From: Sulfurimonadaceae bacterium
Lineage (GTDB): Bacteria; Campylobacterota; Campylobacteria; Campylobacterales; Sulfurimonadaceae
Reading direction: 5' to 3'
DNA length: 24,970 nucleotides
Assembly: GCA_041562555.1 (NCBI GenBank)
Contig: JBFEXS010000021.1
Location: 1 to 24,970 of the forward strand
In this document: in pieces, positions 2,761 to 24,970 of the stretch
How positions within the stretch are numbered: position 1 is the first letter of the stretch
How the letters are laid out: each line of letters begins with the position of its first letter
Notes under the pieces: generated by a model
Databases searched by the model: none
What the model was told of the DNA's origin: nothing
Seen by the model: only the letters and a program-made list of their open reading frames with translations
Translations under genes and position numbers: made by a program

Positions 2761-2768
2761 GCACCTTC

Positions 2769-2777
2769 TGATATAGT
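2769..2777 (+). promoter_or_regulatory. Possible internal extended -10 promoter (TGaTATAGT) for cobT
   Basis: TG at 2769-2770 and TATAGT at 2772-2777, 5 nt before the cobT ATG. No Shine-Dalgarno in the 22-nt gap. Confidence 0.4.
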
Positions 2778-2782
2778 CTATC

Positions 2783-3823
2783 ATGCAAAAGATTTCACTT
2801 AACAGCTCACCTTTTCAAGCGCAACAAGCCGACTTTTTACTAGCGGCTTGCGTTACCCATACCTGTGAGACACCTCGGCTGACACAGGCAGGTATCCCCG
2901 GTAAGATCCCCCTAACGCCAACATTGGATGCGGAGTTCATATCAACGGGAAAAGTCTTCTCGTTGGGGGAGATCGCAGAAACACCAAAAGGGGTTCCTAC
3001 ACCTGCTCTGCTCACTAGAGCTGTGCACGAGCTTGCTCCCTTTAGTGATCTTTCTATCCTGAATCTCGGTCTGCAAAACAAGCCTCAAGAATGCAAGGTA
3101 CTTGATTTTGACATCGCACCGACCCCAAGTATCACGGCAGCCAAAGGCTTTGATGCCGAGGGTCTCTTTGAGAAGGGGTTCGAGTTTGGCAAGAAGTATC
3201 AACTTCAAGGAGACTATCTCATACTGGGTGAAAGCACCCCATCAGGGACAACGACCGCGCAAGCCAGTATCACCGCCTTAGGCTATGAAACAGAGGGACT
3301 CTTCGCTTCTTCTTTTAAAGACGCCCCCTCAAGCATCAAAGAAAAGACCATCTCCAGAGCACTCGCAAAACTGCATACGAATATGTCCATCTATGAAAAA
3401 CTTGGCCACACGTCTGATAATATGCTCATGTTTACAGCCGGCTTCATCCTCTCTGCATCCAGACGTTTCAATATCGTCCTTGCAGGGGGGACCCAGATGG
3501 CAGCGGCTCTGTTAATTTCAAACACCATTGCCGGTCTGCGAGGCATCCATCATGACCATCGACGTATCCACCTCTGTACGACCAAATGGATCGCTGAGGA
3601 CAAGGATTCCAATATTCAGGCCCTAATCGATCAGCTGGATTTTCGTCTGAAGGCCTATTATGCTGACTTTAGTTTTGAGCAGAGCCATCACCCTGCCCTT
3701 AAACTTTATGATGAGGGAGAGGCTAAAGAGGGTGTCGGTGCCGGCGCGTGTATCTCTTATGCTTATGCCCATGGTATCTCTGCCAAAGCCCTTACTTCCA
3801 AGGTCGAGTCTTACCTTGGCTAA
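2783..3823 (+). CDS. cobT: Nicotinate-nucleotide:lower-ligand phosphoribosyltransferase, archaeal/cyanobacterial type
   Basis: TPTLDAEF, GVPTPALLTRA, GESTPSGTTTA, LAGGTQM and YDEGEAKEGVGAG motifs, plus cob operon context. Confidence 0.85.
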   Translation: MQKISLNSSPFQAQQADFLLAACVTHTCETPRLTQAGIPGKIPLTPTLDAEFISTGKVFSLGEIAETPKGVPTPALLTRAVHELAPFSDLSILNLGLQNKPQECKVLDFDIAPTPSITAAKGFDAEGLFEKGFEFGKKYQLQGDYLILGESTPSGTTTAQASITALGYETEGLFASSFKDAPSSIKEKTISRALAKLHTNMSIYEKLGHTSDNMLMFTAGFILSASRRFNIVLAGGTQMAAALLISNTIAGLRGIHHDHRRIHLCTTKWIAEDKDSNIQALIDQLDFRLKAYYADFSFEQSHHPALKLYDEGEAKEGVGAGACISYAYAHGISAKALTSKVESYLG

Positions 3824-5204
3824 ACATCTTAGTATCTTTGGGACCTCCTCGGATGCAGGCAAATCCACCTTGAGTTTTGCCCTCACCTATCTTCTGCACC
3901 ATGCAGGCTTCAAGACGGCCCCCTTTAAGGCGCAGAACGTATCCAATAATTCTGCTGTCTGTGATAAGGGTGGAGAGATAGCTATCCCCCAATTTTTTGC
4001 GGCAGAGGCTATAGGCCTGCAGACCTCAGCTCAGATGAATCCTGTTTTACTCAAATCAGGTAAGGAGAATAAAGCCTCACTCATTCTTAGGGGCTATGCT
4101 ACTTCTGAACAGGATGTCAGGGACTATTATGCCAATCTGGACACCCTTAAACCCATCGTTAAAGAAGCTTTCGAAGACTTGGCACGAGAGTATGAGCTTA
4201 TCGTGGCTGAGGGAGCCGGTTCGCCTGTGGAGCTTAACCTTATGGACAAGGATCTCTCCAACATCTATATCGCTACCGAGTTTAACACCAAGATCATCCT
4301 AGTGGCTGATATTGAAAAAGGCGGGGTGTTCGCCTCAATCTATGGCGTCTATAATCTTTTACCTGAAGACCTCAAAAAGAACGTCATCGGTGTGATCATC
4401 AATAAATTTCGAGGTGATACATCCCTCTTTGATGAAGGCAGACGTATCATTGAAGAGACCTTTGGACTGAAAGTGCTTGGCCTTGTCCCCTACAGAGCCT
4501 TGAACCTTGGCTTTGAAGATATACAGTCCCTTCTAAATTATCAACAGAACAAACCCAATGCCCATATCAATGCTGCCGTGATCAGGCTCCCCCATCTCTC
4601 CAACTTCACCGACTTTGAAGCCCTTATCAATGATCCTGAAGTCCTCGTCAGTTTTATAGAGACCCTCAACCATCTTGATCAATTCGATCTTCTCATCATC
4701 CCAGGGTCCAAACGTACAATCACAGACCTCAAGTGGCTCAAGGAACAAGGAGTTGAGACAGCTCTAAAACAGTATAAAGGGATAATACTGGGTATCTGCG
4801 GAGGGTATGAAATGATGTTTGAAACACTCTATGATGAAAAAGGGGTTGAAGAGGAGCCCATGACACAAGAGACTGGGCTTGGTCTTATCAAAGAAACACT
4901 ACATTTTGAAGCAGAAAAGACCCTTGCCAAGGGAGAATATACCCTTTTTGGCATGAACATAGAAGGTTACGAGATCCATTATGCAAAGGCCGACCAGTTC
5001 TCCTTTCAAAATGAAAATGTGTATGGGACCTTTCTGCACGGGCTTTTGGAGAATGATAATTTCAGAGACCGACTCTTTTCCAGGATCTCCTCCGAGTATA
5101 CAGGGTATAATTTCAAATCATTTAAAGCGAATAAAATCAAAGCGTATTGTTCCTTTATCAATACACATATAGACCTTGAGACTATCATAGGAGAGATACG
5201 ATGA
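3816..5204 (+). CDS. cobQ: Cobyric acid synthase (CobQ/CbiP)
   Basis: GTSSDAGKS, PFKAQNVSNNS, EGAGSPVELNL, GICGGYEM and GTFLHG motifs. Start placed at TTG 3816, overlapping the cobT stop, rather than at 3660. Confidence 0.92.
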   Translation: MAKHLSIFGTSSDAGKSTLSFALTYLLHHAGFKTAPFKAQNVSNNSAVCDKGGEIAIPQFFAAEAIGLQTSAQMNPVLLKSGKENKASLILRGYATSEQDVRDYYANLDTLKPIVKEAFEDLAREYELIVAEGAGSPVELNLMDKDLSNIYIATEFNTKIILVADIEKGGVFASIYGVYNLLPEDLKKNVIGVIINKFRGDTSLFDEGRRIIEETFGLKVLGLVPYRALNLGFEDIQSLLNYQQNKPNAHINAAVIRLPHLSNFTDFEALINDPEVLVSFIETLNHLDQFDLLIIPGSKRTITDLKWLKEQGVETALKQYKGIILGICGGYEMMFETLYDEKGVEEEPMTQETGLGLIKETLHFEAEKTLAKGEYTLFGMNIEGYEIHYAKADQFSFQNENVYGTFLHGLLENDNFRDRLFSRISSEYTGYNFKSFKANKIKAYCSFINTHIDLETIIGEIR

Positions 5205-5704
5205 AAGCCCTTTTCATAGGCGGTGTCAAAAGCGGAAAGTCCTTTCATGCCGAGCAGTTTTGCCTGCAGCACTCCAAGCTCCCTCCTGTCTATCTAGCCA
5301 CGACCGAGTTCGTCGATGAGGAGATGAAAGAGCGCATTAAAACCCATCAACTCCAACGCAGCGAACGTTTCTTGACTGTAGAGGAGTCTTTAAATATCTA
5401 TGAGGCGATCACACCGATGAAGAGCACTGTCTTGGTCGAATGTGTCTCTATGTGGATCAACAATATGCTTTATCATGGATTCGAGTATGAAGCGATACAC
5501 GAGCATATACAAAAACTCCTGGCCCTTCCCCATGATATCGTCTTTGTACAGAATGACGTGGGATCGGGTGTGATTGCCGACAATGCCCTTGCCCGGGAAT
5601 ACGTCGACATCTCAGGGCGGATCTCCCAGCTCATAGCCTCCCGGTCGGACAAAGTCTTTCATGTCATTGCCGGTATTTCTACACAGATTAAGGGCAAACA
5701 ATGA
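5201..5704 (+). CDS. cobU: Bifunctional adenosylcobinamide kinase / cobinamide-phosphate guanylyltransferase
   Basis: GGVKSGKS P-loop, YLAT, DEEMKERIKTHQLQR and NDVGSG motifs. ATGA overlap with cobQ. Confidence 0.9.
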   Translation: MKALFIGGVKSGKSFHAEQFCLQHSKLPPVYLATTEFVDEEMKERIKTHQLQRSERFLTVEESLNIYEAITPMKSTVLVECVSMWINNMLYHGFEYEAIHEHIQKLLALPHDIVFVQNDVGSGVIADNALAREYVDISGRISQLIASRSDKVFHVIAGISTQIKGKQ

Positions 5705-6429
5705 TCAAAAAAACAGCGATGGGCTTTGCTTTAGCAGTGTCGATGTTAAGCACACTTCCCTTTTTTAGAGTGCACGACTTCTTTAAGGGGATAAACGGTT
5801 TTGCCGTAATGTTCTATCCCCTTGTCGGTTTTATCCTTGGAACTATCCTTTATGGCCTCTCTCACCTGCTTGAGCCTTATATCCCACCGGTCCATCTGCA
5901 TATCTTACTCTTTGCATCGTGGGTTGTCCTCACGGGCGCTCTGCATCTGGATGGACTCTCCGATACGATTGATGCCCTCTTCGTTAGAAAAGAGAGAGCA
6001 TTGGAGGTGATGAAAGACCCCCATGTTGGTGCTATGGGGATGACATACACCGCTGTCTTTTTGATCGTGAAAGCGTCCGTTCTTGTTGTGACTGATGCCC
6101 TTTGGGCACTTCCTATTATTCTGATGTTGGCCCGTTTTAACGCCGTCTTAGCCATCTACTTTTTTCCCTATATCCGAGAGAATGGGATGAGTACCCTAGC
6201 CAAACAAGAGTTCAATATCACTCAGCTGCTTTGCTCCATACTCATTGTCTCCCTTGTCTCTATTAGCATGCCTAAGGGAGTTCTACTCCTGCTTATTTCT
6301 TTAGTCTCGCTCCTGTTTTTCAAACTCTGGTTCAATAGACGCTTTGGAGGGTTTTCAGGAGATCTGTACGGCTTTATGATCGAAGGTACGGAAATCCTAT
6401 TACTGCATGGGGTCCTTCTGCTATGCTGA
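5701..6429 (+). CDS. cobS: Adenosylcobinamide-GDP ribazoletransferase (cobalamin synthase)
   Basis: TGALHLDGLSDTIDA, MKDPHVGAMG and GGFSGDLYG motifs in a polytopic membrane protein. Confidence 0.92.
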   Translation: MIKKTAMGFALAVSMLSTLPFFRVHDFFKGINGFAVMFYPLVGFILGTILYGLSHLLEPYIPPVHLHILLFASWVVLTGALHLDGLSDTIDALFVRKERALEVMKDPHVGAMGMTYTAVFLIVKASVLVVTDALWALPIILMLARFNAVLAIYFFPYIRENGMSTLAKQEFNITQLLCSILIVSLVSISMPKGVLLLLISLVSLLFFKLWFNRRFGGFSGDLYGFMIEGTEILLLHGVLLLC

Positions 6430-6998
6430 TCACCCTTGTACGCCATGCCGAAGTCGATGAGGCTTATCATCATAAATATAACGGGCATATAGATATATCT
6501 CTCTCCAAAAAAGGCAGAAAACAGGCTCAGGAACTTGCCCAAAGACTTCAGGGTAAACACTATGATGCTATATTCTGCTCGGATCTTAAACGCTGCAAGC
6601 AGACGCTGCAAGCCTTTGATTTAGACCTAAAGCCCACATACACCTCCATGCTCAGGGAAAAATCATGGGGATGCCATGAGGGCAAGAGCTTTGATGAGAT
6701 TATTGCAATGGAGAGCTTCACCTATGAGGATTTTGAACAATGGATCAATGCCCTTGATGGAGAAGCATATGGAGAATATATCCAGCGCATAGAAGACTTC
6801 TTTACCCGCTTTCTTCCCGAGGCGGCACCCTATGAGCATATCCTGGTAATGACCCATGCCGGAGTGATTCGCGTACTCATGCATCTATTTGAGAAGATCT
6901 CCTTGGAAGAGGCCTTTGGCCGTCGCTTCGCCTATGCAGACCACATTATCCTAGATACACAGACCTGGTCGTTTCAGCGCGAGAGAGAGGCTGTCTAA
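6423..6998 (+). CDS. cobC: Histidine phosphatase, alpha-ribazole/adenosylcobalamin-5'-phosphate phosphatase
   Basis: LVRHAE, SDLKRCKQT, LREKSWG and THAGVIR motifs, plus operon context. Confidence 0.8.
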   Translation: MLITLVRHAEVDEAYHHKYNGHIDISLSKKGRKQAQELAQRLQGKHYDAIFCSDLKRCKQTLQAFDLDLKPTYTSMLREKSWGCHEGKSFDEIIAMESFTYEDFEQWINALDGEAYGEYIQRIEDFFTRFLPEAAPYEHILVMTHAGVIRVLMHLFEKISLEEAFGRRFAYADHIILDTQTWSFQREREAV

Positions 6999-7807
6999 TG
7001 CGTTTGATTCTGCTTTGTATTCTTCTTGGTTCCAACCTCCTTGCCAAAGAGCGTATTGTCACCCTTGCTCCTTCTATCAGTGAGGTGGTATTTGCTCTGG
7101 GAAAGGGTGAGGAACTCGTAGGTGTAAGTGAATTTTCCTTCTATCCTGAAGAGGTTCAAGGTATCACCAAGATCGGAGGATATTCCAATCCTTCACTGGA
7201 GAAGATTTTTTCCCTTAACCCCACTATTGTTATCGGTCAGCATCATTATGAAAAGACCCTGGATCAATTACATCAACTGGGTATCAAGACCTTAAGCCTT
7301 GAGATGAGTACCATCGATAATATCAAACATTCGATCACACAGATCGCCGCTGTCCTTAAGGCGGATCCAGGCCCCCTTCTTACTCCTATCAATAATGCTA
7401 TTGCCAAAGTGAAAGACTCAAAGACCCAAGATAAACGTGTGCTTATTGTCTATGGTCTCTCTATGGATATCAACCGGGGCTTATACATCGCAGGACATGA
7501 TATCTTTTATGAGGATATCATCCATCTGTGCGGAGCGAAGAATGCCTATGACAAAACGGAACTGAGCCAACCTGTCTTGCATTACGAGGGAGTGATAGAG
7601 ACAAACCCGGATATGGTTATCTTGCTTCATCACAGTGCTACTGACGGGGAAGTGGATTTTCAGAAAGCAAAAGAACTCTGGTACAATATCCCTATTGCAG
7701 CAGCTAAAAACAAAGAGGTCTACATCCTGAGTAAAGATTATCTCTCCATCCCTTCACATCGTGTGGCCCAATCCATCCTGGATATCTGTGAGGTTATTCA
7801 ACAATGA
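6998..7807 (+). CDS. btuF: Cobamide ABC transporter periplasmic binding protein
   Basis: Signal peptide and ERIVTLAPSISEVVFALG...VGVS motif of helical-backbone binding proteins. Confidence 0.8.
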   Translation: MRLILLCILLGSNLLAKERIVTLAPSISEVVFALGKGEELVGVSEFSFYPEEVQGITKIGGYSNPSLEKIFSLNPTIVIGQHHYEKTLDQLHQLGIKTLSLEMSTIDNIKHSITQIAAVLKADPGPLLTPINNAIAKVKDSKTQDKRVLIVYGLSMDINRGLYIAGHDIFYEDIIHLCGAKNAYDKTELSQPVLHYEGVIETNPDMVILLHHSATDGEVDFQKAKELWYNIPIAAAKNKEVYILSKDYLSIPSHRVAQSILDICEVIQQ

Positions 7808-8538
7808 TTGTCTCTGAACTCACACTTGCCTATGAAAACACCCCCATCTTAGAAAACATCTCCTTTGAATTCAGGGAACATCTGCTTGTCCTGGGTGCGA
7901 ACGGTTCGGGTAAAAGTACCTTGGCCAAGGCCTTATGTGGGCTTCTTCCCTATGCGGGATCGATCAAACTTTCAGATCACGAGCTCTCTTCTATCCCCCC
8001 GCGTCAACGGGCCAAAGGCATTGCATATATACCGGCTAAGATGCACAGTTTTGAAAGTTTTACCACCGTCGAAGAGTTTGTCCTCTTGGGGCGCTATCCC
8101 TATAAAGACTCCTTTAAAGACTATACTCAGGAAGATAAACAGATCGCCAAAGAAGCCCTGGAAGAGATGGGTCTTGCCTCTCTTTGCTCTCACAGGCTCC
8201 ATGAACTCAGCTCAGGTCAGCAGCAGTTAACCCTCATTGCCCAGGCCCTTGCGCAAAAAAGCACTATCTTGATCTTTGATGAGCCCACCTCCAACCTGGA
8301 TCCTAAAAACACGGCCCTTTTTGTACAGGAACTCAAAAAACTTCGACAACGGCATAAGACCATACTGATCTCCCATGATATACAACTCGCAGCCCACCTG
8401 AATGATCCTGTACTCTTTTTAAACAAGCAAAAAGCAACCTACCATGAGAAAGGGTTTTTCGACAAGGAGCAACTCAGTCTTGCCTATGGAGTTTCCTTTG
8501 TCAATGACAAAGGTGTTATCGGAGTCTCTTATGAATAG
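7804..8538 (+). CDS. btuD: Cobamide ABC transporter ATP-binding protein
   Basis: Walker A GANGSGKS, LSSGQQQ signature, Walker B IFDEPT and H-loop SHD. Confidence 0.8.
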   Translation: MIVSELTLAYENTPILENISFEFREHLLVLGANGSGKSTLAKALCGLLPYAGSIKLSDHELSSIPPRQRAKGIAYIPAKMHSFESFTTVEEFVLLGRYPYKDSFKDYTQEDKQIAKEALEEMGLASLCSHRLHELSSGQQQLTLIAQALAQKSTILIFDEPTSNLDPKNTALFVQELKKLRQRHKTILISHDIQLAAHLNDPVLFLNKQKATYHEKGFFDKEQLSLAYGVSFVNDKGVIGVSYE

Positions 8539-9487
8539 ACTCGTCTGGCTTTTTCTTCTAGGCACGGCACTGCTTTCCCCTTTTATAGGTACAGCCAACC
8601 TTGAACTTGACACACTTCTAGAGAGCGGTTCCCTTTCTCAACGCATCTTTGTTGAGCTTCGCCTTCCGCGAATACTGCTTGCCTTTTTCACGGGCGGGAC
8701 CCTCGCCTTGGCCGGCTTGCTTTTTCAGACCCTCTTTCGCAATGCCTTGATGACCCCCTTTACCCTCGGCGTTTCGGGAGGAGCAGTACTGGGTGCAGGC
8801 CTCGCTATCAAATTGGGATTAGGAGTGATCATCGGTATCTCTGCCGTCTCCTTTTTTGGCTTTATCGGTGCCTTTTCTACCGTTATCATGCTCATTGTAT
8901 TATCACGATACCTCAAGAAGTCCGAGCAGACCTCTTTGCTTCTTTTGGGAATCGCCCTCTCCTTTTTCTATACTTCTGCACTCATGGTCATCTTCTATCT
9001 CAGTTCATTTACCGAAACAGCGACCATTATGCGTTTTACTATGGGTAGCCTCTCTACTGTGGGTTATGTGCATGTGATCACAATAGCACTATTTGCCCTG
9101 TTGTTACTACTGTCACTCTGGCTAAAACGATTTGAGCTACAGCTGCTCTCCATCAGCGATGAACAAGCCGCACTGAAAGGGATCAACACCAAAAGACTGA
9201 CCTACCTCTTCTTGATCATCTCTTCTCTGGCGATCGGGGTACTTGTGAGTCTTACAGGGCCCATTGGCTTTATCGGTCTTATTATTCCCCATATGGTACG
9301 TAAGCTTTATGAAAAACCGGTTGTTTCATTGATCTTTCCAAGCTTTTTTCTAGGCGGCCTGTTTCTGCTCTTTTGTGACACCCTCGCCCGTTTTTTCTCA
9401 TACGGAAGTGAAATCCCTATCGGGGTTGTAACCGCCCTAATCGGTGGACCGTTTTTTATCTATCTGATTATCACTAAAAGTGCTTAA
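8531..9487 (+). CDS. btuC: Cobamide ABC transporter permease (FecCD family)
   Basis: LRLPR, FQTLFRNALMTPFTLGVSGGA, GPIGFIGLIIPH and EIPIGVVTALIGGPFF motifs. Start at ATG 8531 after GGAG. Confidence 0.82.
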   Translation: MNRLVWLFLLGTALLSPFIGTANLELDTLLESGSLSQRIFVELRLPRILLAFFTGGTLALAGLLFQTLFRNALMTPFTLGVSGGAVLGAGLAIKLGLGVIIGISAVSFFGFIGAFSTVIMLIVLSRYLKKSEQTSLLLLGIALSFFYTSALMVIFYLSSFTETATIMRFTMGSLSTVGYVHVITIALFALLLLLSLWLKRFELQLLSISDEQAALKGINTKRLTYLFLIISSLAIGVLVSLTGPIGFIGLIIPHMVRKLYEKPVVSLIFPSFFLGGLFLLFCDTLARFFSYGSEIPIGVVTALIGGPFFIYLIITKSA

Positions 9488-13688: not shown

Positions 13689-13780
13689 ATTATTCTTTTT
13701 TATTACTATAGTAACACTAAAAAAGAGCAAGATTGTTTATGAAAAAAATTAAAATAAAGATAGGACTATGTTTTAAGATT

Positions 13781-15629: not shown

Positions 15630-15974
15630 CTAGTTGATACTACCGGAGTACTGAAGGTTGATCTTTTCTCGTCTTTGCTTTTCACCCAGCAGTAACATGA
15701 CATCACTAAGCATACATTTCCCGCCATATATCTCCAAAAACTTTCGGACATCTGTTTCCATATCTTCGAACTGGCCCGCCTCACAAACCGTAAAAACATA
15801 ATTATTGCTAAAGATATCGCTCACATCATCGGCAGTTCTCAGGCCATGTCCGCCAGCACCTTCAATATCCTTGATGATGGTATACCCATGAATGCCATGT
15901 CGTTTAAACAGTTCTAATAACCTGTTCACATATACTGCTTCAATGACAAATTCGACTTTTTTCATCTGTTGCAT
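15630..15974 (-). CDS. sbtB: P-II-like regulator of SbtA
   Basis: KKVEFVIE...GYTIIKDIEGAGGHG...YGGKCMLSDV P-II-like pattern. Starts 4 nt after the sbtA stop, at ATG 15974. Confidence 0.8.
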   Translation of the reverse strand: MQQMKKVEFVIEAVYVNRLLELFKRHGIHGYTIIKDIEGAGGHGLRTADDVSDIFSNNYVFTVCEAGQFEDMETDVRKFLEIYGGKCMLSDVMLLLGEKQRREKINLQYSGSIN

Positions 15975-15978
15975 GATC

Positions 15979-16959
15979 TTACCCCCACAATGAATTAATG
16001 ACAAAATAATATAACGGTATCCCCAATGAGATGTTAAACGGAAAGGTCACCGCCAGACTCAGAGGTAAATAAATACCTGGGTTGGCCTGAGGAACCGATA
16101 GACGCATCGCTGCAGGCACAGCAATATACGATGCACTTGCACTAAGCAGTGCCAGCAAGAATGCATCCCCTTTTTCGATCTCAAAAGTATACCCTATACC
16201 TGTTGCTACGAGCGCATTGACCATTGGCATGATCAGTGCAAAGGCAATGAGGAAGAAACCGACTTTTCTCAGTTCATGGATCTTCCTTGCCGCGACAAGT
16301 CCCATATCCAAGAGGAAGAATGCCAGGAAACCTTTGAAGAGTGTTCCAAAGAGCGGCTCCATGGAATGCCACCCTTTCTCCCCTGTCAATATTCCGATAA
16401 TCAAAGCACCCACGAGTAAGAATACCGAAGGATTTAAAAAAGCCTCACGCAGGATCTCTTTCCAATCGGTCTTCTCTTTCTCATCACCCTCTGAACTCTT
16501 GACGAAAATAGCAGCGAAAACCAGTCCGATGACAATAGCAGGTGATTCCATAAGTGCCATGGAGGCGACCATAAATCCGCCATACTCCACACCGATCGTC
16601 TGAAGATAGGTAATACCTGTGATAAAAGTGACCGCACTGATGGACCCGAAGGTAGCCGCGACGGCAATGGCATTATAGACATCGATCTTGGTACGCAATA
16701 CAAAAAAACTGTAGATGGGTACGATCATGGACATGAGCACTGCTATCAAAAGTGCCTTGAAGATATATAGATCCAACCCGCTTTTAGAAAGCTCATACCC
16801 TCCATGCAAACCGATTGCGATAAGCAAATACAGTGAGAACAGTTTTGGCAAAGGTTGTGGTATAGACAGTTCAGATTTTAAAAACACAGCCAGCATCCCT
16901 AAAAAAAAGAAGAGTACCGGTGGATTCAACATATTCTGTAATATTAAATCAATATTCAT
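15979..16959 (-). CDS. sbtA: Sodium-dependent bicarbonate transport family permease
   Basis: YLLIAIGLHGG, FGSISAVTF, MESPAIVIG, FLLDMG, SASYIAVPAAMR and TFPFNI motifs. Confidence 0.9.
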   Translation of the reverse strand: MNIDLILQNMLNPPVLFFFLGMLAVFLKSELSIPQPLPKLFSLYLLIAIGLHGGYELSKSGLDLYIFKALLIAVLMSMIVPIYSFFVLRTKIDVYNAIAVAATFGSISAVTFITGITYLQTIGVEYGGFMVASMALMESPAIVIGLVFAAIFVKSSEGDEKEKTDWKEILREAFLNPSVFLLVGALIIGILTGEKGWHSMEPLFGTLFKGFLAFFLLDMGLVAARKIHELRKVGFFLIAFALIMPMVNALVATGIGYTFEIEKGDAFLLALLSASASYIAVPAAMRLSVPQANPGIYLPLSLAVTFPFNISLGIPLYYFVINSLWG

Positions 16960-17071: not shown

Positions 17072-17719
17072 CTATCGTTTTCTTTTTTTTGAAATCCTGG
17101 TTTTATTCGCCTTATACTTGTAGTTTTTCAGCTTCTCCACAATCTTAAAGGAGAGTTCGTGAATCTCGCTTATCTTACAGGTATCGTCCTGATAAAAGTG
17201 TTCACGTTTGCTTTCAAACTGTCCAATGAGTTCCAAAAAGTCAATCTCTTGCAAAAACGGATAGATATGCGTAGACTTCTCTTCACCGAGCACCCATTCA
17301 GCCAGGACACTGACAACCAGAAACACCGGTAGATAGACCGCTTGGCCCGCGAAATGATTACGCACCTGTTGTGCCATCACATCATAATAATCCATCAGCG
17401 GCTCTTCTTGTTTCACCAGGAGCTTTAGCCCGGGATACTGCTTTGAACTCTGTACCAAATTGATCAGATAGTCCACATTGACTACCGATTCCTGGAGCTG
17501 TCCTAGCAGTTTTTTTAATTCTGTATAGACATACACCGCCGACTCGTCTGACTCGCACGCTGCTTCGGTTTGTGCAGCATCCAATTCTCTGAAATAACGT
17601 TCCAAGGCCGTACGGGCGAACACCAGCAAGGCTTCCGTCTTCACATCTCGAAGTAAGCTTGGTTTGATACGCTTGATACAGTTATTGCTCATAAGGTCAT
17701 TTTGTGGTATTGCACTCAT
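17072..17719 (-). CDS. Hypothetical protein, translationally coupled to the biotin carboxylase
   Basis: 215-aa ORF starting 1 nt after the carboxylase stop, with AGGAG upstream. Looks helical, with a basic C-terminal tail. Confidence 0.75.
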   Translation of the reverse strand: MSAIPQNDLMSNNCIKRIKPSLLRDVKTEALLVFARTALERYFRELDAAQTEAACESDESAVYVYTELKKLLGQLQESVVNVDYLINLVQSSKQYPGLKLLVKQEEPLMDYYDVMAQQVRNHFAGQAVYLPVFLVVSVLAEWVLGEEKSTHIYPFLQEIDFLELIGQFESKREHFYQDDTCKISEIHELSFKIVEKLKNYKYKANKTRISKKRKR

Positions 17720-17720
17720 C

Positions 17721-19172
17721 TTAACTCCTTGTCGTTAGCTTATGCTCTTTTATTTTTTTGATCATGTTGGAAATAAAAGATATCTTCTTCTCTTCATCTT
17801 CAAGGGAAGATTTTGCATCCAGGTTGAACGCATCCATCTTGGCATCCAGAAAACCTGTATTGAAACTACCGGCTTTGAAGTCTTCGTTTTTCACGATCTC
17901 TCGATGCAACGGGATATTCGTCTTTACCCCGTCAATATTATATTCATCCAGAGCACGTCGTGCTTTTTTGACCGCACCTTCCCAGTCCAATGCCCATACA
18001 ATCAGTTTTCCCATCATCGAGTCGTAACTTGAAGGGATCTCATAACCTTCATACATACACGAATCAATACGTACTCCCGGTCCACCAGGAGTAAGATAGT
18101 TTTTAATCGTACCGCCTGAAGGCATAAAGTTGTTCTGAGGGTCTTCGGTGTTGAGTCTAAACTCGATCGCATACCCACGGAACTTGATCTCTTCTTGCAA
18201 GAACTGCAACCTGTCTCCATCGGCGATCTCGATCATGCGCTGGATAATGTCTACCCCCGAGATCACCTCGGTGACCGGATGTTCCACCTGTACGCGCGTA
18301 TTCATCTCAATGAAGTAGATATTGTCATCCTCATCCAGCAAGAACTCGACCGTACCCACACTCTCGTAACCGAGCCTGAACATCGCCTTTGTCGATACGC
18401 GATAAAGCTCTTTACGCGTCTGCTCGTTCAAACGCGGTGACGGTGCGATCTCAATCACTTTTTGATGACGTCTTTGAATAGAACAATCCCGTTCACCAAG
18501 ATGTACGACATTCCCATAGCTATCCGCAACGATCTGCACCTCGATATGACGCGGGTTCTCAACATATTTTTCAATGAAGACATCCCCTTTGCCGAAATAT
18601 TTGACTGCCTCATTTGTCGCAGAGTCAAACATACTTGAGAACTCTTTGGCTTTTTTGACGATACGCATCCCCCGTCCGCCGCCGCCAAAAGCCGCCTTGA
18701 TGATAACCGGAAACCCGATCTCATTAGCGATCATCTCTCCCTCGGTCTTGTCCGTAATCGGTGTATCGGTTCCTTCCAACACAGGAACCCCGATCTCTTT
18801 CATCGCGACCTTGGATGCCATCTTGTCACCGAAAAGCTCGATATGCTCCGCCTTGGGACCGATAAAGATGATACCGTTATCATGACAAGCACGTGCGAAC
18901 TCTGCACTCTCTGACAAGAAACCATATCCAGGATGGATTGCATCACATCCTGCTTTTTTTGCAATGGAGAGTATCGGTTCATAATCCAAATAAGCCTGCA
19001 CCGGATTTCCCATAATCGGATAACACTCATCGGCCTTTTTGACCCAGACACCGTCCACATCAACTTCAGAAAACACAACAACGCTTTTGATCTCAAGCTC
19101 TTTACATGCTCGAATAATACGTAAGGCGATTTCACCTCTATTGGCGATCAGTACTTTTGAGATTTTGTTCAT
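17721..19172 (-). CDS. Biotin carboxylase subunit (AccC/PycA family)
   Basis: KVLIANRGEIA, HPGYGFLSE, GGGGRGMR, ERDCSIQRRHQK and EMNTRVQVEH motifs. The length (~483 aa) is more PycA-like. Start is 19172 or 19175; Shine-Dalgarno spacing favours 19172. Confidence 0.92.
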   Translation of the reverse strand: MNKISKVLIANRGEIALRIIRACKELEIKSVVVFSEVDVDGVWVKKADECYPIMGNPVQAYLDYEPILSIAKKAGCDAIHPGYGFLSESAEFARACHDNGIIFIGPKAEHIELFGDKMASKVAMKEIGVPVLEGTDTPITDKTEGEMIANEIGFPVIIKAAFGGGGRGMRIVKKAKEFSSMFDSATNEAVKYFGKGDVFIEKYVENPRHIEVQIVADSYGNVVHLGERDCSIQRRHQKVIEIAPSPRLNEQTRKELYRVSTKAMFRLGYESVGTVEFLLDEDDNIYFIEMNTRVQVEHPVTEVISGVDIIQRMIEIADGDRLQFLQEEIKFRGYAIEFRLNTEDPQNNFMPSGGTIKNYLTPGGPGVRIDSCMYEGYEIPSSYDSMMGKLIVWALDWEGAVKKARRALDEYNIDGVKTNIPLHREIVKNEDFKAGSFNTGFLDAKMDAFNLDAKSSLEDEEKKISFISNMIKKIKEHKLTTRS

Positions 19173-19306
19173 CATTTGCTCCTAAAAATTTTAAACAGGA
19201 GAATTCTAGTCTCTTTTAAAAAATAACTCTTCACCGCCTTTGATCTAAATATTATCTATTATTGTCATCTTATTTGACTTTTCATGCTAAAAATAATTTC
19301 TTTTTT

Positions 19307-20241: not shown

Positions 20242-22095
20242 TCAGCGTTTTCTGCCTCTGTTAAACTCATCATCATCCGCAGCATCTTTACATCCTGGAT
20301 CTGCAAGATCGACGAGTCCATCACCATCATTATCCACACCGTCTGAACAGGCTGTCAGCGTTGGTGCGATTTCATTAAACTCATCATTATCATCGGCACT
20401 GCTGCAACCCGGATCGAGCATATCGATCAGACCGTCATTATCATTATCCTGTCCATCGGCGCATGCAGCGACCGGTGGGGTACTCCCGCCGATGACATCG
20501 ACGCTCAAAGAGGTTGCCGCTATCTGTGAGGTTTTCATCGTACTTGCGTCATACATTCCCTTGAATGAACTCGCCTCATCGGAGGCATCCGTAAACAGGT
20601 CTTGTGCGAATGGATACGAAAGTGTCTGATACAGAAGTTCTACATCAACCGTGTAGGTTCCTGTCTCTAATCCGCTTACACGGTAAGTGATCCTATCACC
20701 TCCACCCACAAAATTTATATCCGAATCGGCTGATCCAGATACTTTGACATCATTGGGTGCACTCGCTTTGTCAAATCCTGTCGGCAAGATACGGTTGTCT
20801 TTTTTATACTCCATGGCACGTAGAAGGGTATAAGTCACTTCCCCAAGGTTATTTCCCATGACAGTTTCATAGATCTGTACCTGATCCTGTGAGGTGATCA
20901 GGTCATAATGGGGTTCAAATACACCAGGGTCCACATCCGAATCTGCTCCGACAATACTTCCGTCGGCATTGACACGACCTGATTCAAAAACGATATTACC
21001 GCTGCTGTCACTGACACTGACATGTAAAAAGACACGACGTGACGGGAAACTTGTCGGCAGCTTATGACCTGTTTGTGACGTCACCTGCATCGTGATGTCC
21101 ATCGTGCTATCCTGTACGGACTGATCGATTATCTCTACCCGTCCTGAACTTCGTAACATCTCATCTGTCTTGGCCAGGGTATCTGCAAAATTATTCGAGT
21201 TGACTCCAAGTTCTAACTTGTTATTATTCAAAATATCCAGGAGCGTCTTATTCCCCCCTACAAAGATATGTTGAGCAAACCCATCACGCTTTGTCGTCAG
21301 GTTGTTCGGGCGGGATGCCATGATGACCCCATTCGTACGCTTCATATGACAATCTTGACAACTCTGGGTATCCTTATAAGAGCTATGTTCCCATTCACTA
21401 TAGGGCATCTGTTCAGGGAACTCACTCTCCGGTGTCGTACTCAAAAGGTTCCCGCTGTCATCTACATAAGGTGTTTTAAGGTTATGACAGCTCGCACACA
21501 TCTTTGAATCTTTTATATGTGCACTGTACTGGATAGTGTAATCTACATTATTGATCATCGGTTGTACTCTGAGATTGTCATAAGGGCCATAGATCGTACG
21601 GCTCTCATCAACCTCATACTTCCCGGACATCCCATCTAAGGTTCCCAGTTTTCCATTGTCTTTGACCTGATGACAAAGAGTACAGCTGACCCCGTTCATC
21701 GCCTCATCATGGTGTGAACTCTGAGGGTCCAGGAACCCACCCGCATCGAACAGCTCTATCGCTTCACCGTTAAAATGGGCTTCTGTATTGGCCATAGGCG
21801 CATGACACTTGGTACATTTATCATTGATGACGCTTTCCAACTGGGGATTACGGTTGATCTCAGAGCGCACTTTCGCACGCCATAAAGGGTCTTTCGTTGC
21901 ATTTGCCATCATAGTCGATGACCAGGCCTTTTCAATCGAGACATCATTCCCTGATTCATCAGTGATACCGTTATGACAGGTAGCACAGTTGCCAGACCCG
22001 GAAAAATGATACGAGGTAAACGACGTGTTTTCCGCCATTAGACTTGTTATACCTATACTTAAAAGGATTATCAATCTCTTACAAACATGATGCAT
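20242..22095 (-). CDS. Secreted pentaheme cytochrome c with C-terminal acidic repeats
   Basis: Signal peptide. Five CXXCH motifs (CATCH, CTKCH, CTLCH, CASCH, CQDCH). GHKLPTSFPSRR motif. Shine-Dalgarno GGAG. Confidence 0.88.
   Translation of the reverse strand: MHHVCKRLIILLSIGITSLMAENTSFTSYHFSGSGNCATCHNGITDESGNDVSIEKAWSSTMMANATKDPLWRAKVRSEINRNPQLESVINDKCTKCHAPMANTEAHFNGEAIELFDAGGFLDPQSSHHDEAMNGVSCTLCHQVKDNGKLGTLDGMSGKYEVDESRTIYGPYDNLRVQPMINNVDYTIQYSAHIKDSKMCASCHNLKTPYVDDSGNLLSTTPESEFPEQMPYSEWEHSSYKDTQSCQDCHMKRTNGVIMASRPNNLTTKRDGFAQHIFVGGNKTLLDILNNNKLELGVNSNNFADTLAKTDEMLRSSGRVEIIDQSVQDSTMDITMQVTSQTGHKLPTSFPSRRVFLHVSVSDSSGNIVFESGRVNADGSIVGADSDVDPGVFEPHYDLITSQDQVQIYETVMGNNLGEVTYTLLRAMEYKKDNRILPTGFDKASAPNDVKVSGSADSDINFVGGGDRITYRVSGLETGTYTVDVELLYQTLSYPFAQDLFTDASDEASSFKGMYDASTMKTSQIAATSLSVDVIGGSTPPVAACADGQDNDNDGLIDMLDPGCSSADDNDEFNEIAPTLTACSDGVDNDGDGLVDLADPGCKDAADDDEFNRGRKR
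20260..20466 (-). repeat. Two 31-aa AC.DG.DND.DGL.D..DPGC...D.DEFN repeats
   Basis: ACADGQDNDNDGLIDMLDPGCSSADDNDEFN and ACSDGVDNDGDGLVDLADPGCKDAADDDEFN, separated by 7 aa. Confidence 0.85.
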
Positions 22096-22263: not shown

Positions 22264-23295
22264 ATGCACATTGGATTTATCATAGAGCATTGGGACAATC
22301 TTGAACCGGTCAAAAGTTCAACCTTGGCAATTATCAAAGAGTGTTTGGCACGAAACCATAAAGTATCCATCCTCTATACTAACAATCTGACAGTTCGAAA
22401 CAATGTCGTACACGGCAGTTGCCTGACGATCAAAAAAATGGATAAGATTCCAGAAAACATCACTACGTTCTATAAGAAAATAGAGTTTGACAAAAAGATG
22501 CTTGCCCTGCATGCCTTCGACTGTATTATGATCCGAAAAGACCCTCCGATCAGCCCCTTGGCCTTCAATTTCCTTGATGCCATCAAAGACGAAGTGGTTA
22601 TTATCAACGATATCGACGGTATCCGTAAAGCAAACAATAAACTCTATACGACCACCTTCCACGATCCTAACAACCTTTTCCTGCCTGTTACCCATGTATC
22701 CGGAAGTAAAACCTATATCAACCGTATCATCGACGAGTCTAATCAGGAGAAGATGATCCTCAAACCTTTAGATGGATCCGGGGGTCGTGGTGTCATCGTT
22801 TTGGAAAAAAACGCACGCTCCAACATCAACTCGCTTCTTGACTTCTATATCGATGATTCCGGGGAGAACTATGTCATCCTTCAGGAGTATATCGAAGGAG
22901 CGGAACATGGTGATGTCCGCGTAATCATGCTCAATGGCAAAGCGATCGGAGCCTATCATCGAAAACCTGCTGTAGGTGAAGTCCGTGCTAATATCCAGGC
23001 CGGTGGAAGTGCCCACAAATATACCCTTACCGAAAGTCAAAAACGCGTATGTAAAAAGATCGGCTCAAAGCTGGTCGCTGACGGACTCTTCTTTGTAGGC
23101 CTGGACATGATCGGTGATAAAATCCTCGAGGTCAACGTGCTCAATCCCGGTGGGATCACCAACATCAATCGTCTTAACAAGGTCAAACTTCATAAGAATG
23201 TCGTGGACTTTCTCGAAGAAAAAGTCGAAGAAAAAGTCGAAAAGCGCATTGAATTGGAATATCTGCTAAAACGCCTAAGCGAGCTTCGTGAATAA
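22264..23295 (+). CDS. gshB: Glutathione synthetase (ATP-grasp)
   Basis: RKDPP, LKPLDGSGGRGV, QEYIEGAEHGDVR, RANIQAGG, FVGLDMIG and EVNVLNPGG motifs. Shine-Dalgarno GGAG. Confidence 0.85.
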   Translation: MHIGFIIEHWDNLEPVKSSTLAIIKECLARNHKVSILYTNNLTVRNNVVHGSCLTIKKMDKIPENITTFYKKIEFDKKMLALHAFDCIMIRKDPPISPLAFNFLDAIKDEVVIINDIDGIRKANNKLYTTTFHDPNNLFLPVTHVSGSKTYINRIIDESNQEKMILKPLDGSGGRGVIVLEKNARSNINSLLDFYIDDSGENYVILQEYIEGAEHGDVRVIMLNGKAIGAYHRKPAVGEVRANIQAGGSAHKYTLTESQKRVCKKIGSKLVADGLFFVGLDMIGDKILEVNVLNPGGITNINRLNKVKLHKNVVDFLEEKVEEKVEKRIELEYLLKRLSELRE

Positions 23296-23523: not shown

Positions 23524-23552
23524 TTAAAACCATCCCTCGATATAAGGGATGG
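23524..23552 (-). terminator. Intrinsic terminator of the porin gene
   Basis: Minus strand CCATCCCT-tatatcg-AGGGATGG followed by TTTT, 19 nt after the porin stop. Confidence 0.7.
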
Positions 23553-23571: not shown

Positions 23572-24786
23572 TTAGAAATTATATGTCAGGTAAAGTTGGA
23601 ATGTTGTCAACTCTTCATTTGTCGTATCACCAAACATATCATAGATAAGTGCAAGAGAAGTGTCTAAGGCACCAAATGACTTGCTAGCGGTAAACGTGAT
23701 CTCATCGACCTCAGTCTCTCCTCCGGTAGCAGGCTTGATATCTGCACTCCAGTATCCAAGGAACAGATCCACATCGGCAACAGTACTCTCAGCAGACACA
23801 GTCCAAGTATCAGCCCCTGTTACACTCGCCGTTTGAAACCACCACCAGAACTCTGTATAGAGTGATGACGCAGTACCTGCAGCCTGTCCCGTTGTAGCAA
23901 AGTTATATACACCGCCGTATGAACCTTCATCATCAACTGAAGAATACGCTGCTTTTAGCGTTACCGTATCTTCAATAGCATAACCAACCATCAAGGCATA
24001 GGCAGAGTCATCCGGACCTGTTCCTTCCATATCAATACTTGTGTACTGCGCACCTGCTAGCAGACCGTCCATATCAATATCCGCCTGCAGCCAGTAAGCA
24101 TTAGCAGTATTTGGAAGTTCATAGTACCATGCCTGTGCTGTCAGTGGTTTAACAGAGTTGTTAGTCACACCAATAACAGCAGCACCGTCGCTACCGATAG
24201 TCTTGAATGCCCCGCCTTTAGACATGATACTTGCATCAACCGTTGCAGGATCTTCGACACCTACACCATTTGATTTACCTACCCATGCACCGACCAAAGT
24301 CGTATCCGAGATATCTTCATTGATCAGTAGACCGGCTTCAAAAGTATTGTAATCCAAACTCCATGTCTCTGTAAAAACCAGCGGCGTTTCTAAGGTCTGA
24401 CGACCGACTTTTGCCGTCGTATTCCCCAGCTTGCCTTCCAGCCAGGCTTCAGAAAGCCATTCAGTTGTTTCCAAAGCTCCGCTTTGACTTTCATGTGCAT
24501 TTGACCAAGGCCCTTCCGCAATGCTGTCCTGCATACCCAGGGTAGAGATCACTTGAAACTTCGCACCCCCTTTGACATTTTCCATCAGATCTGCCGTTAC
24601 ACCAAGACTAAATCCAAAGTCAGCATAAGATGCTGCCTTGTCAAACATTTCAGGACTTCCTGTCGTTGAATCACCTTGTGTACCGTAAAAAAGTTTTGCG
24701 TCCCCGCTGACTTCAACATTTTCTGCTGCAAACAGATTTGCTCCAAGTAATAATCCTGCTATCAAACTCATTTTAGTAAACTTCAT
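23572..24786 (-). CDS. Outer-membrane porin (Campylobacterota MOMP/OprD-like)
   Basis: MKFTKMSLIA signal peptide; VSGDAKLFY, KVGRQTLETPL and AQAWYY motifs; C-terminal YNF. Shine-Dalgarno AGGAG before ATG 24786. Confidence 0.85.
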   Translation of the reverse strand: MKFTKMSLIAGLLLGANLFAAENVEVSGDAKLFYGTQGDSTTGSPEMFDKAASYADFGFSLGVTADLMENVKGGAKFQVISTLGMQDSIAEGPWSNAHESQSGALETTEWLSEAWLEGKLGNTTAKVGRQTLETPLVFTETWSLDYNTFEAGLLINEDISDTTLVGAWVGKSNGVGVEDPATVDASIMSKGGAFKTIGSDGAAVIGVTNNSVKPLTAQAWYYELPNTANAYWLQADIDMDGLLAGAQYTSIDMEGTGPDDSAYALMVGYAIEDTVTLKAAYSSVDDEGSYGGVYNFATTGQAAGTASSLYTEFWWWFQTASVTGADTWTVSAESTVADVDLFLGYWSADIKPATGGETEVDEITFTASKSFGALDTSLALIYDMFGDTTNEELTTFQLYLTYNF

Positions 24787-24832
24787 TTTTTCTCCTGAGA
24801 AATATATATAAGTTAAACACAACAAAAATTTA

Positions 24833-24930
24833 TTCTCCCGGGTTTTTATCCCTCCGTGTAACCTTATATATAAAAGGTCGATGACTCTCGGACCAGCACA
24901 GATGATTCTGTCGGAACCCTAGTCATCTAT
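24833..24930 (-). ncRNA. ykkC-yxkD riboswitch, guanidine-I (subtype 1) type
   Basis: Minus strand reads GATGACTAGGGTTCCG-ACAGAatcaTCTGT-GCTGGTCCGAG-AGTCATC-GACCTT...AAGGTT-ACACGGAGGGATAAAAACCCGGGAG. All hallmark ykkC blocks and the P1/P1a/P2/P3 pairings are present. Confidence 0.93.
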
Positions 24931-24970
24931 TGAATGTAAAGAAATGTAAATCTCACATCTAATGTCATGC

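Follow-up and report, generated by a model that had tools for sequence, protein, structure and literature searches.

Guanidine-I import/carboxylase operons have been described in Raoultella terrigena and Klebsiella michiganensis, and their riboswitches belong to the same aptamer class as the one considered here (available part of PMC12186494). In the searchable literature the guanidine regulon is defined by inner-membrane importers, exporters and catabolic enzymes; neither an outer-membrane step of this regulon nor a porin as guanidine-riboswitch target was found in that literature, outside which the gene-association list of Nelson et al. (2017) lies. The word "porin" is likewise absent from the review text as far as it is accessible (PMC12186494), and a literature search combining "guanidine" with "Sulfurimonas" returned guanidine in no title or abstract. 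A substrate-induced outer-membrane porin is known from Methylophilus methylotrophus, i.e., FmdC, encoded in fmdCABDEF and serving short-chain amides and urea (accessible sections of PMC10781810; 10.1101/138586).

The DNA analysed here, referred to as the window, is a whole contig of 24,970 nucleotides (G000:C21) from a Sulfurimonadaceae bacterium, whose assembly comprises 2.10 Mb and is 88.9% complete. At one end, 37 nt from the contig terminus, it carries a guanidine-I riboswitch that precedes a porin gene on the minus strand, an arrangement that recurs in the family and suggests that the use of guanidine as a nitrogen source involves an outer-membrane step, so far undescribed.

The Guanidine-I Aptamer

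An initial annotation of this DNA had proposed a complete ykkC aptamer, and the three sequence blocks it quoted were found in the window. The covariance-model search of the whole window (Rfam cmscan) bore this out: the match to Guanidine-I (ykkC subtype 1; RF00442) at 24933..24833 (-) reached 89.0 bits, well over the cut-off of 63 (E 4.8e-15), over model positions 1-107 of 107 and without truncation, and the feature (24833..24933) contains P1, P1a, P2, P3 and all conserved blocks. It was the sole match above the gathering score in the whole window, and a repeat scan of 24700-24970 gave as only further match pntA, at 15 bits (E 9.2). No other porin-linked copy of genus g1 scores as high. Across 11 porin-linked aptamers the alignment has 57 invariant columns, and RNAalifold returned 19 pairs, 5 of which are preserved with both sides changed; these compensatory changes support the P1/P1a/P2/P3 architecture, and, as most of them set genus g33 apart from the rest, they represent few independent events.

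The motifs CCGAGAG, ACACGG and CCCGGGAG are unaltered in the window aptamer. The pocket nucleotides are of the guanidine type, with G at G67, A at A38 and G at both G84 and G85, by our own mapping onto the description in the accessible part of Battaglia et al. (PMC5340920), according to which pyrimidines replace G67 and A38 in subtype 2. GGGAG (G83-G87 of that description) is intact. With purines at both diagnostic positions, the assignment to the guanidine-binding subtype 1 made at the outset was retained, and the window RNA is, judged from its nucleotides, an aptamer of the guanidine-binding type. Position 24843 is A in the window (RNA sense), while G is found in 10/10 other porin-linked and in all aligned importer-linked aptamers. 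Three DNA sequencing runs of one study match the window, and no RNA sequencing run covering it was among the runs found. Two of the DNA runs, compared with 24757-24970, gave short, fragmented contigs, none of which spans this entire segment, and the pieces over 24843 carry the G variant (RNA sense). In the same two runs word depth was far higher over the aptamer core than over the porin, and the excess presumably comes from riboswitches of other organisms.

The Leader and the Expression Platform

The 5′ leader upstream of the aptamer (24934..24970, minus strand) is cut by the contig end. Since it aligns with the leader 3′ of the TATAAT box in relatives, the transcription start probably lies at the contig end or just past it; the last bases of the contig align with the conserved ...GCATGACAT... 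which follows the -10 box in G010, G007, G008 and the metagenome locus L108. The promoter and anything further upstream are located beyond the end of the window, outside the visible sequence. In an attempt to extend past the contig end, an exact 32-nt linker pattern had no match in metagenome contigs. A palindrome that lies upstream of the relatives' promoters was not found in the G000 assembly, where a pattern with looser constraints matched at 15 scattered places, none of them convincing.

Between aptamer and porin there is a 46-nt linker (24787..24832, minus strand), termed type A, which contains UGUUGUGU at 24824-24817 and the Shine-Dalgarno sequence AGGAGA at 24796-24791, four bases before the porin ATG. 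The gap to the ATG measures 46 nt from the end of the model and 48 nt from the last G of GGGAG, and both elements are on the minus strand, in agreement with the distance of about 48 nt on the same strand given earlier.

In relatives the aptamer is followed by canonical ON-type terminator platforms. In g33, GGGAGAGA of the aptamer pairs with UCUCCC, after which six U follow (-23 to -27 kcal/mol for the leader segments), and in the leaders termed type B, ACACGG and GGGAG pair with CUCUU-G-CCGUGU, followed by four U (-12.6 to -14.1 kcal/mol). Such a competing terminator is not found in the window: the terminator scan gave no terminator-like site at 24832-24787, the terminator half is shrunk to a short G/U-rich stretch and the terminator of most relatives is largely gone, and forced pairing of ACACGG with UUGUGU reaches -4.2 kcal/mol vs -12.6 to -13.8 in type B relatives. 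The initial annotation had described an ON-switch; the relatives' platforms agree with this, but the window has no recognisable terminator and, because the terminator partner of most relatives is largely missing, ON-switching is not demonstrable there. Sequestration of the ribosome-binding site was considered for the window leader and rejected, as the leader folds without stable pairing of AGGAGA. The type A linker also occurs in G010 and L108.

The Porin

The porin gene (23572..24786, minus strand) runs from an ATG at 24786 to a stop at 23572-23574 and encodes 404 aa. The protein has the attributes of a porin, i.e., an N-terminal signal peptide (a helix at residues 5-18 in the model), a predicted 18-strand β-barrel (AlphaFold2; pLDDT 91.2, pTM 0.87), a C-terminus ...YLTYNF with the terminal aromatic ...YNF, and matches to the Pfam models Porin_4 (30.3 bits, cut-off 27) and OprD (25.3 bits, cut-off 25). 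The NCBIfam cut-offs for "Opr family porin" were not reached (NF033923, 34.5 bits vs 150; NF033922, 30.3 vs 100). A sequence search of the PDB with the porin gave noise only, with viral proteases at best (E 0.061) and the "probable porin" 4ft6 at E 0.17. Occ channels are known for carboxylates or basic amino acids as substrates, not for guanidine. In the Foldseek comparison the best match was OccK8 (4frx; E 2.6e-17, TM 0.71), then OccK9 and OccK3, with the MOMP of C. jejuni (5ldt, 5ldv) at TM 0.65-0.67. The 18-strand model would place the protein in the fold class of the OprD/Occ channels of Pseudomonas and Acinetobacter and of C. jejuni MOMP, at an identity of just 11-17% to these structural matches.

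The porin was originally said to be followed by its own terminator, and the consensus scan found a hairpin at 23552..23530 (-) with a 9-pair stem (5 G-C), a loop of 5 and the tail TTTTAAC; in orthologues, hairpins after the stop codon were seen when the downstream sequences were read by eye. Since the neighbouring gene at 22264-23295 (+), a glutathione-synthetase-like ATP-grasp gene, converges on the porin, the latter is monocistronic in the window. Its neighbours are this gene, a multihaem cytochrome and others, with no guanidine locus adjoining. The window porin is an extra, accessory paralogue; a second porin is encoded in the same genome (contig C17), about 44-50% identical and in a separate clade.

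The composition of the protein, rich in Asp/Glu and Trp/Tyr, had been taken as suited to a guanidinium cation. This argument had to be dropped. The porins of the family are acidic in 37/37 cases compared (net charge -8 to -45), the riboswitch-linked porins of g33 being the least acidic (-8 to -15), and the YTEFWWWF stretch corresponds to a family-wide consensus, LYTEAWWN. Composition does not discriminate among the 37 porins and was rejected as evidence of guanidinium selectivity. The only alignment column that parts linked from unlinked porins is Gly58 (11/11 vs 20/21).

Linkage of Riboswitch and Porin in Sulfurimonadaceae

RF00442 was found in 32/151 Sulfurimonadaceae genomes (6/23 genera), and its context was looked at in 31 of the 32, with G113 left out. 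An aptamer above the cut-off stands 45-50 nt before a porin start in 11/31 of these riboswitch-bearing genomes, which belong to four genera: g1 (G000, G012, G010), g37 (G052, G100), g2 (G145, G101) and g33 (G134, G156, G123, G131). The two metagenome loci retrieved by a search with the porin have the same riboswitch-porin arrangement, and a related-loci search of genome contigs gave five loci, all already in the genome-search set. The check proposed in the initial annotation, namely whether orthologous porins carry the switch and co-occur with guanidine carboxylase, thus turned out positive, with 11/31 genomes and two metagenome contigs. All 12 of the riboswitch-porin units other than that of the window (10 genomes and 2 metagenome contigs) adjoin a second riboswitch-led guanidine locus, which encodes an ABC importer and carboxyguanidine deiminase and, in those loci that extended beyond these genes, carboxylase or allophanate hydrolase as well.

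Two layouts occur. In g1, g2 and g37 the riboswitch, porin, second riboswitch and importer follow each other in tandem on one strand. In g33 the porin, only 35-36% identical, stands at the opposite end of the locus in convergent orientation and has its own riboswitch. In the tree of 37 porins the g33 proteins form a separate clade (SH-aLRT 100). The clade of the window porin (SH-aLRT 100) has as other members G012_C4 and G014_C15, which lie directly before a riboswitch-led guanidine ABC/carboxylase locus, and G016_C50, which is truncated by the end of its contig and, as in the window, lacks a guanidine locus behind the porin. Since the locus porins of g2 and g37 group with g1 porins and not with the off-locus g2 porin of G017, the data fit a porin that moves together with the locus.

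The porin-linked aptamer is evolutionarily unstable, decayed or vanished in four congeners. Decay is evident in G015 (50.6 bits), in G004 (34.1 bits) and in G005, where the contig end also cuts the aptamer, and the aptamer is missing in front of the locus porin of G014; the copy linked to the importer reaches 80-93 bits in each of the six genomes of this comparison (G015, G004, G005, G014 and G010 among them). The porin aptamer of G010 has a G-to-U change in ACACGG. Because the same-clade porins of G007, G008, G003 and G011 have no aptamer, the channel is not obligatorily tied to guanidine; the G007 leader matches that of G010, with the aptamer missing. The duplicated leader, ranging from intact to decayed, offers a compact natural series on riboswitch gain, rewiring and loss.

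Guanidine Genes in the Genome of the Window

Searches of the contig and of the assembly for a guanidine importer, carboxylase, hydrolase or Gdx exporter were negative; the assembly is 88.9% complete, which leaves the absence of these genes unproven. When 13 proteins from the relatives' loci were compared with the 2.10-Mb assembly by tblastn, there was no match for either deiminase subunit, the EamA-type protein, the C-terminal piece of allophanate hydrolase or three further locus proteins; only generic matches were obtained, to biotin carboxylase (43-44%, N-terminal third), amidase and ABC proteins. Searches of the assembly for the SMR/Gdx family, the arginase fold and the guanidine-II riboswitch were likewise negative. 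A possible deletion scar was considered, in which the spacer downstream of the porin matches the tail of the L108 importer leader collinearly at 14/15 and 13/15 positions, and it was rejected, as equal or better chance matches exist elsewhere in the assembly. The window copy is atypical in that the rest of the locus is neither adjacent nor found in the assembly and its terminator half is reduced.

Proposed Function and Alternative Readings

The porin with its own riboswitch is most likely a member of the guanidine locus in this family and a guanidine-induced uptake channel, a reading in which we place reasonable though by no means full confidence. It is supported by the constant association of the other riboswitch-porin units with an importer and catabolic locus. 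The proposed family locus for guanidine assimilation would comprise the riboswitch, a periplasmic binding protein, permease, ATPase, carboxyguanidine deiminase, guanidine carboxylase and allophanate hydrolase. Cytoplasmic guanidine would bind the aptamer and raise porin synthesis, and more guanidinium would then cross the outer membrane and reach the ABC importer. Aptamer, porin fold, linkage across genera and the relatives' canonical terminator platforms are the observed parts of this scheme; that the window copy binds guanidine, that the porin is induced and that guanidinium passes the channel are postulated. Initially both uptake as a nitrogen source and efflux had been suggested; the importer/carboxylase loci of relatives favour uptake over efflux and, because no further guanidine-handling gene was found in G000, a nitrogen-source role in the organism of the window is inferred from relatives only.

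The main competitor, which we regard as unlikely but deserving serious attention, holds that the unit is a relic: the organism or a recent ancestor lost or relocated the guanidine locus, the protein is now a general porin, and the surviving aptamer, deprived of its terminator partner, no longer gates expression. The failure to find pathway genes in the assembly, the unrelated convergent gene after the porin, the aptamer-ATG stretch devoid of a terminator and with weak alternative pairing, the decay or loss of porin aptamers in congeners and the aptamer-free G007 leader are all as expected from such a history. However, the aptamer of the window is fully intact and the best-scoring of the g1 porin-linked copies, and the type A linker is not confined to orphan units, since L108 and G010 have it with a complete importer locus after the porin. 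The assembly is, moreover, incomplete, and genome bins often miss islands.

Far less probable is a role in detoxification, in which the porin would let guanidine leave the periplasm and work with exporters like the inner-membrane, riboswitch-controlled Gdx. A porin is passive and bidirectional, which is compatible with such a role. Gdx/SugE-like exporters are also common guanidine-riboswitch targets (available part of PMC12186494), yet the search of G000 for the SMR family was negative, and in 12/12 other units the porin has an importer and catabolic genes beside it instead of exporters. Least probable of all is a ykkC variant that senses a different ligand, such as ppGpp or PRPP, or an assembly artefact that brought RNA and porin together. 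The metagenome-assembled contig does end close to the aptamer, and the public contigs of the best-matching run are fragmented where aptamer and porin meet, but purines occupy the pocket positions, in keeping with subtype 1, and the same junction and spacing recur in ten further genomes and in two metagenome contigs.

The uptake-channel reading may be extended to a broader scheme that we offer tentatively and consider rather doubtful as a whole. Sulfurimonadaceae would have an outer-membrane channel devoted to guanidinium and gated by the riboswitch. Its recruitment from family porins would have taken place at least twice, by copying the promoter-plus-riboswitch leader of the importer, and it would travel between genera with the carboxylase locus; the window copy would be a free-standing sensor-channel unit that functions with no locus beside it and has a non-terminator platform. 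A candidate for this platform is one in which ACACGG and the 5′ leader compete for the UGUUGUGU strand. If true, the guanidine regulon would have in this channel its first component in the outer membrane, and passage of the outer membrane would limit guanidine scavenging at marine concentrations.

Comparison with Known Systems

The loci of the relatives contain the same set of importer, carboxyguanidine deiminase, carboxylase and allophanate hydrolase as the enterobacterial operons, and in L108 a guanidine-II match (32.5 bits, cut-off 32) precedes the carboxylase, as it does in enterobacteria (accessible text of PMC12186494). These findings indicate that marine sulfur-oxidising Campylobacterota are able to assimilate guanidine. 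The enterobacterial operons, as presented in the available part of PMC12186494, start at the inner-membrane importer, whereas Sulfurimonadaceae have a second copy of the riboswitch for the porin, as a separate transcription unit. In the window the riboswitch-porin unit stands alone. A porin under its own riboswitch in four genera and two layouts suggests that passage across the outer membrane becomes important at low guanidine supply, and it provides a concrete candidate for a guanidinium channel. A parallel in gene arrangement is FmdC, whose gene lies beside a binding-protein-dependent importer and a catabolic enzyme (accessible sections of PMC10781810). The substrate of FmdC differs from guanidine, and what is shared is the logic: a porin, an ABC importer and a hydrolytic pathway.

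Riboswitch and porin gene of the window

The Guanidine-I aptamer lies on the minus strand at 24933-24833, where the Rfam covariance model is matched over its full length with 89 bits against a cut-off of 63 (E 4.8e-15), which confirms the assignment made in the initial annotation. It is the sole Rfam family above cut-off anywhere in the window and the only Guanidine-I copy in the G000 assembly (the metagenome-assembled genome of 2.10 Mb in 137 contigs, 88.9% complete, of which the window is one entire contig). The CCGAGAG, ACACGG and CCCGGGAG blocks are kept intact; in the Dickeya structure (PMC5340920), the same three blocks contain the pocket residues G37/A38, G67/G68 and G83-G87. According to that paper, the G67 and A38 positions are pyrimidines in subtype 2 RNAs, whereas the window's aptamer has purines at both equivalents and so differs from subtype 2 and is of the guanidine type, as had been proposed. 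The one deviation is the last base of the P3 loop (24843), an A, where G is found in 10/10 other above-cut-off porin-linked aptamers and in all aligned importer-linked aptamers, i.e., the copies preceding a guanidine ABC importer. The window's aptamer is an ordinary representative of a much-studied riboswitch class. In the public run X1, the best holder run, word depth of the aptamer core (24834-24864) is about 10x that of the porin body, which suggests many guanidine-I riboswitches of other organisms in the marine community.

The porin ORF (404 aa, minus strand) starts at 24786, 46 nt 3' of the aptamer and after AGGAGA; its product begins with a signal sequence and ends in ...YNF. Pfam Porin_4 and OprD are both matched barely over their cut-offs, and the structure predicted with high confidence (pLDDT 91.2) is an 18-strand barrel that resembles, at a TM of about 0.7, the Occ/OprD channels, and also Campylobacter MOMP. 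A terminator hairpin follows on the minus strand at 23552-23530, and the adjacent next gene is convergent. The claimed order of aptamer, porin and own terminator is therefore correct, as judged from the Rfam match, the porin models and fold, and the hairpin. Porins of this family are few, with 427 cluster representatives at E <= 0.001 among 1.84 billion, and every other genome of the genus (16/16) has one. Both G000 porin genes adjoin contig ends: the one on C17 (26406-27632, minus strand) has 47 nt of sequence before it, and the one in the window (23572-24970) has 184 nt, which fits a repeated promoter/leader region disrupting the assembly.

Linkage of riboswitch and porin in relatives

A family-wide search placed Guanidine-I aptamers in 32/151 Sulfurimonadaceae genomes and 6/23 genera, and the context was inspected in 31 of these 32 genomes (G113 left out). 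An above-cut-off aptamer precedes the porin by 45-50 nt in 11 of them (G000, G012, G010; G052, G100; G145, G101; G134, G156, G123, G131), while the remaining 20 have one solely before the importer. In six congeners a second Guanidine-I aptamer, scoring 80-93 bits, comes directly after a close porin homologue; on long enough contigs this aptamer is followed by a binding protein, permease, ATPase and two carboxyguanidine-deiminase-like proteins, and further by a 1201-aa carboxylase, an EamA-type protein and allophanate hydrolase. This gene set is that of the guanidine carboxylase route, as outlined in a review (PMC12186494). Both metagenome loci retrieved with the porin query (2/2) have the order riboswitch, porin, riboswitch, importer; the porin of one, L108, is 79% identical to the window's and its linker type is identical too. 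The orthologue check proposed earlier gave a switch before the porin in 11 genomes, G000 among them, and 2 metagenome loci, with the guanidine carboxylase locus adjoining in congeners.

Outside the family, the aptamer occurs in 2/150 other genomes of a phylum sample, before an importer or a 165-aa ORF, and the aptamer-porin pairing was not found in these two. The latter case (L112, G283:C11:242667-242761, 85.3 bits), from another Campylobacterales family, stands outside an importer locus. L108 also holds a Guanidine-II (mini-ykkC) match at 13721-13763 (32.5 bits, cut-off 32) directly before the guanidine carboxylase gene, so that its locus combines two riboswitch classes and three aptamers.

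In genera g1 (that of the window), g2 and g37, the porin unit stands in tandem ahead of the importer. In g33 the porin is merely 35-36% identical and lies convergently at the distal end of the locus with its own aptamer, which is near-identical to the importer aptamer of the same genome. In a porin tree of 37 rows (quick IQ-TREE, SH-aLRT support only), the window's porin is grouped with G012_C4, G014_C15 and G016_C50 (support 100), the g2 and g37 locus porins fall inside g1 porins and apart from the off-locus g2 porin G017, and the g33 locus porins form their own clade on a long branch. Within the limits of root and sampling, this may be read as recruitment of a family porin at least 2 times, and as movement of the porin together with its locus from one genus to another.

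Composition of the linked porins

The initial annotation had also taken the acidic and aromatic composition as a sign of fit to guanidinium. Across 37 porins of the family, the net charge from residue 21 on spans -8 to -45, with the window porin at -41; values down to -42 occur among unlinked porins, linked g33 porins have only -8 to -15, and the aromatic motif is the consensus of the whole family. Since charge range and motif are family-wide, this argument fails. Overall, the earlier interpretation is partly supported. An alignment scan gave a single column separating 11 linked from 21 unlinked porins: residue 58 (window about 24615-24613), a strand position, is Gly in 11/11 intact-aptamer porins, including the independent g33 clade, and Ala (18), Ser (2) or Gly (1) in the unlinked ones. 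Gly58 is a weak lead as a possible mark of riboswitch-linked porins.

Leader and expression platform

Porin and importer leaders can be aligned end to end, in the common order of a 17-bp palindrome (TGATTAAAWWTTAATCA), spacer, TATAAT, conserved 5' leader, small hairpin, aptamer, expression platform and Shine-Dalgarno; by this alignment, the porin leader is a copy of the importer leader. Aptamer-less porins of the same clade (G007, G008) have the promoter and both leader ends in common with aptamer-bearing leaders, and the G007 leader resembles that of G010 minus the aptamer. The palindrome, about 24 nt upstream of TATAAT, occurs at porin genes with or without aptamer and at the guanidine importer operon, and was found ~60-75 nt upstream of leaders in L033 (G010), L034 (G015), L036 (G004), L032 (G012), L108 and L109 (the second metagenome locus). 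It looks like a candidate regulator-binding site common to porin and guanidine promoters. In the window it is beyond view because the contig ends before its expected place, exactly within the conserved 5' leader, so that by homology the transcript probably starts about the contig end, with the aptamer in its 5' UTR.

In g33 leaders, the partner of the aptamer 3' GGGAGAGA is a UCUCCC further downstream, followed by six U; as is classical for such switches, bound ligand would keep back the terminator's 5' half (mechanism as given in PMC5340920). Between aptamer and gene start, two other kinds of linker were distinguished. Type B comprises the aligned importer leaders of g1 and, among porin leaders, those of G012, G052, G100, G145 and G101, with a variant, by eye, in L109; here CUCUU-G-CCGUGU, with four U after it, is the pairing partner of ACACGG and GGGAG. 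Type A (window, G010, L108) is without the CCUCUU segment and has GCCGUGUUUU changed to GUUGUGUUUAAC; a forced ACACGG:UUGUGU pairing yields merely -4.2 kcal/mol, and a detection scan found no terminator in this linker. Sequestration of its ribosome-binding site appeared in none of the computed folds. Minimum-energy and consensus folds predict that the extreme 5' end (GCAUGACA) pairs with UGUUGUGU, enclosing the aptamer, and the same helix is possible, by eye, in the G007 and G008 leaders with compatible substitutions. One strand can pair with either ACACGG or the 5' end, and ligand binding could tip this competition towards the paired 5' end; speculatively, this might affect stability or translation.

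Other genes of the window

An SbtA-type Na+/bicarbonate transporter gene (Pfam Sbt_1, 402 bits) overlaps that of a small P-II-like protein at 15630-16959 (minus), an SbtB-like pair. Upstream, within 17072-19175, are genes for a biotin carboxylase (17721-19175, minus) and, after it, a 215-aa protein that matched no family (17072-17719, minus). A 617-aa multihaem cytochrome (20242-22095, minus) has weak MtrC/MtrF-like matches and, at its C-terminus, two Asp-rich, Cys-flanked repeats (CADGQDNDNDGLID..., CSDGVDNDGDGLVD...). On the plus strand (883-9487), a gene for a TonB-dependent receptor comes first, then genes resembling CobQ, CobU, CobS and CobC and those of an ABC importer of Btu/Fec type, which together look like a cluster for cobalamin salvage. 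Within the window, no riboswitch for cobalamin was above the Rfam cut-off.

Interpretation and known systems

The porin is best read as a guanidine-induced uptake porin, which we consider probable; the guanidine regulon would then extend to an outer-membrane channel. The main rival, in our judgement unlikely, is that the window's particular copy is an orphaned relic. In the G000 assembly, at 88.9% completeness, there is no recognisable guanidine importer, deiminase, carboxylase or dedicated allophanate hydrolase, nor a Gdx exporter, arginase-fold hydrolase or guanidine-II riboswitch; weighed against 11% missing marker genes and generally island-poor bins, this absence falls short of proof. The guanidine locus is definitely not downstream of the window's porin, unlike in the tandem relatives. 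Porin-linked aptamers are also far less stable in evolution than importer-linked ones: they fall to 50.6 bits (G015:C12:5185-5278) and 34.1 bits (G004:C93:106-200), are a cut, decayed remnant in the first 100 nt of G005:C150 and are gone upstream of the porin in G014:C15, all in genomes whose importer-linked aptamers are still fully conserved. The 5' strand of the terminator is likewise mutated in G004 and G005, and the G010 porin aptamer has a mutated pocket position. The window's own copy retains its three blocks at a full-model match.

The new part is the riboswitch's target and the duplicated leader, not the aptamer class. Among the papers listed for guanidine riboswitch/ykkC together with porin, or for guanidine carboxylase together with the outer membrane, none was seen, mainly from titles and abstracts, to present a porin as a target, and the word 'porin' is absent from the 2025 review (PMC12186494); a porin may nevertheless already be listed in the founding gene-association tables (Nelson et al. 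2017). The nearest functional analogue is FmdC of Methylophilus, an amide/urea porin encoded next to its own ABC importer (PMC10781810).
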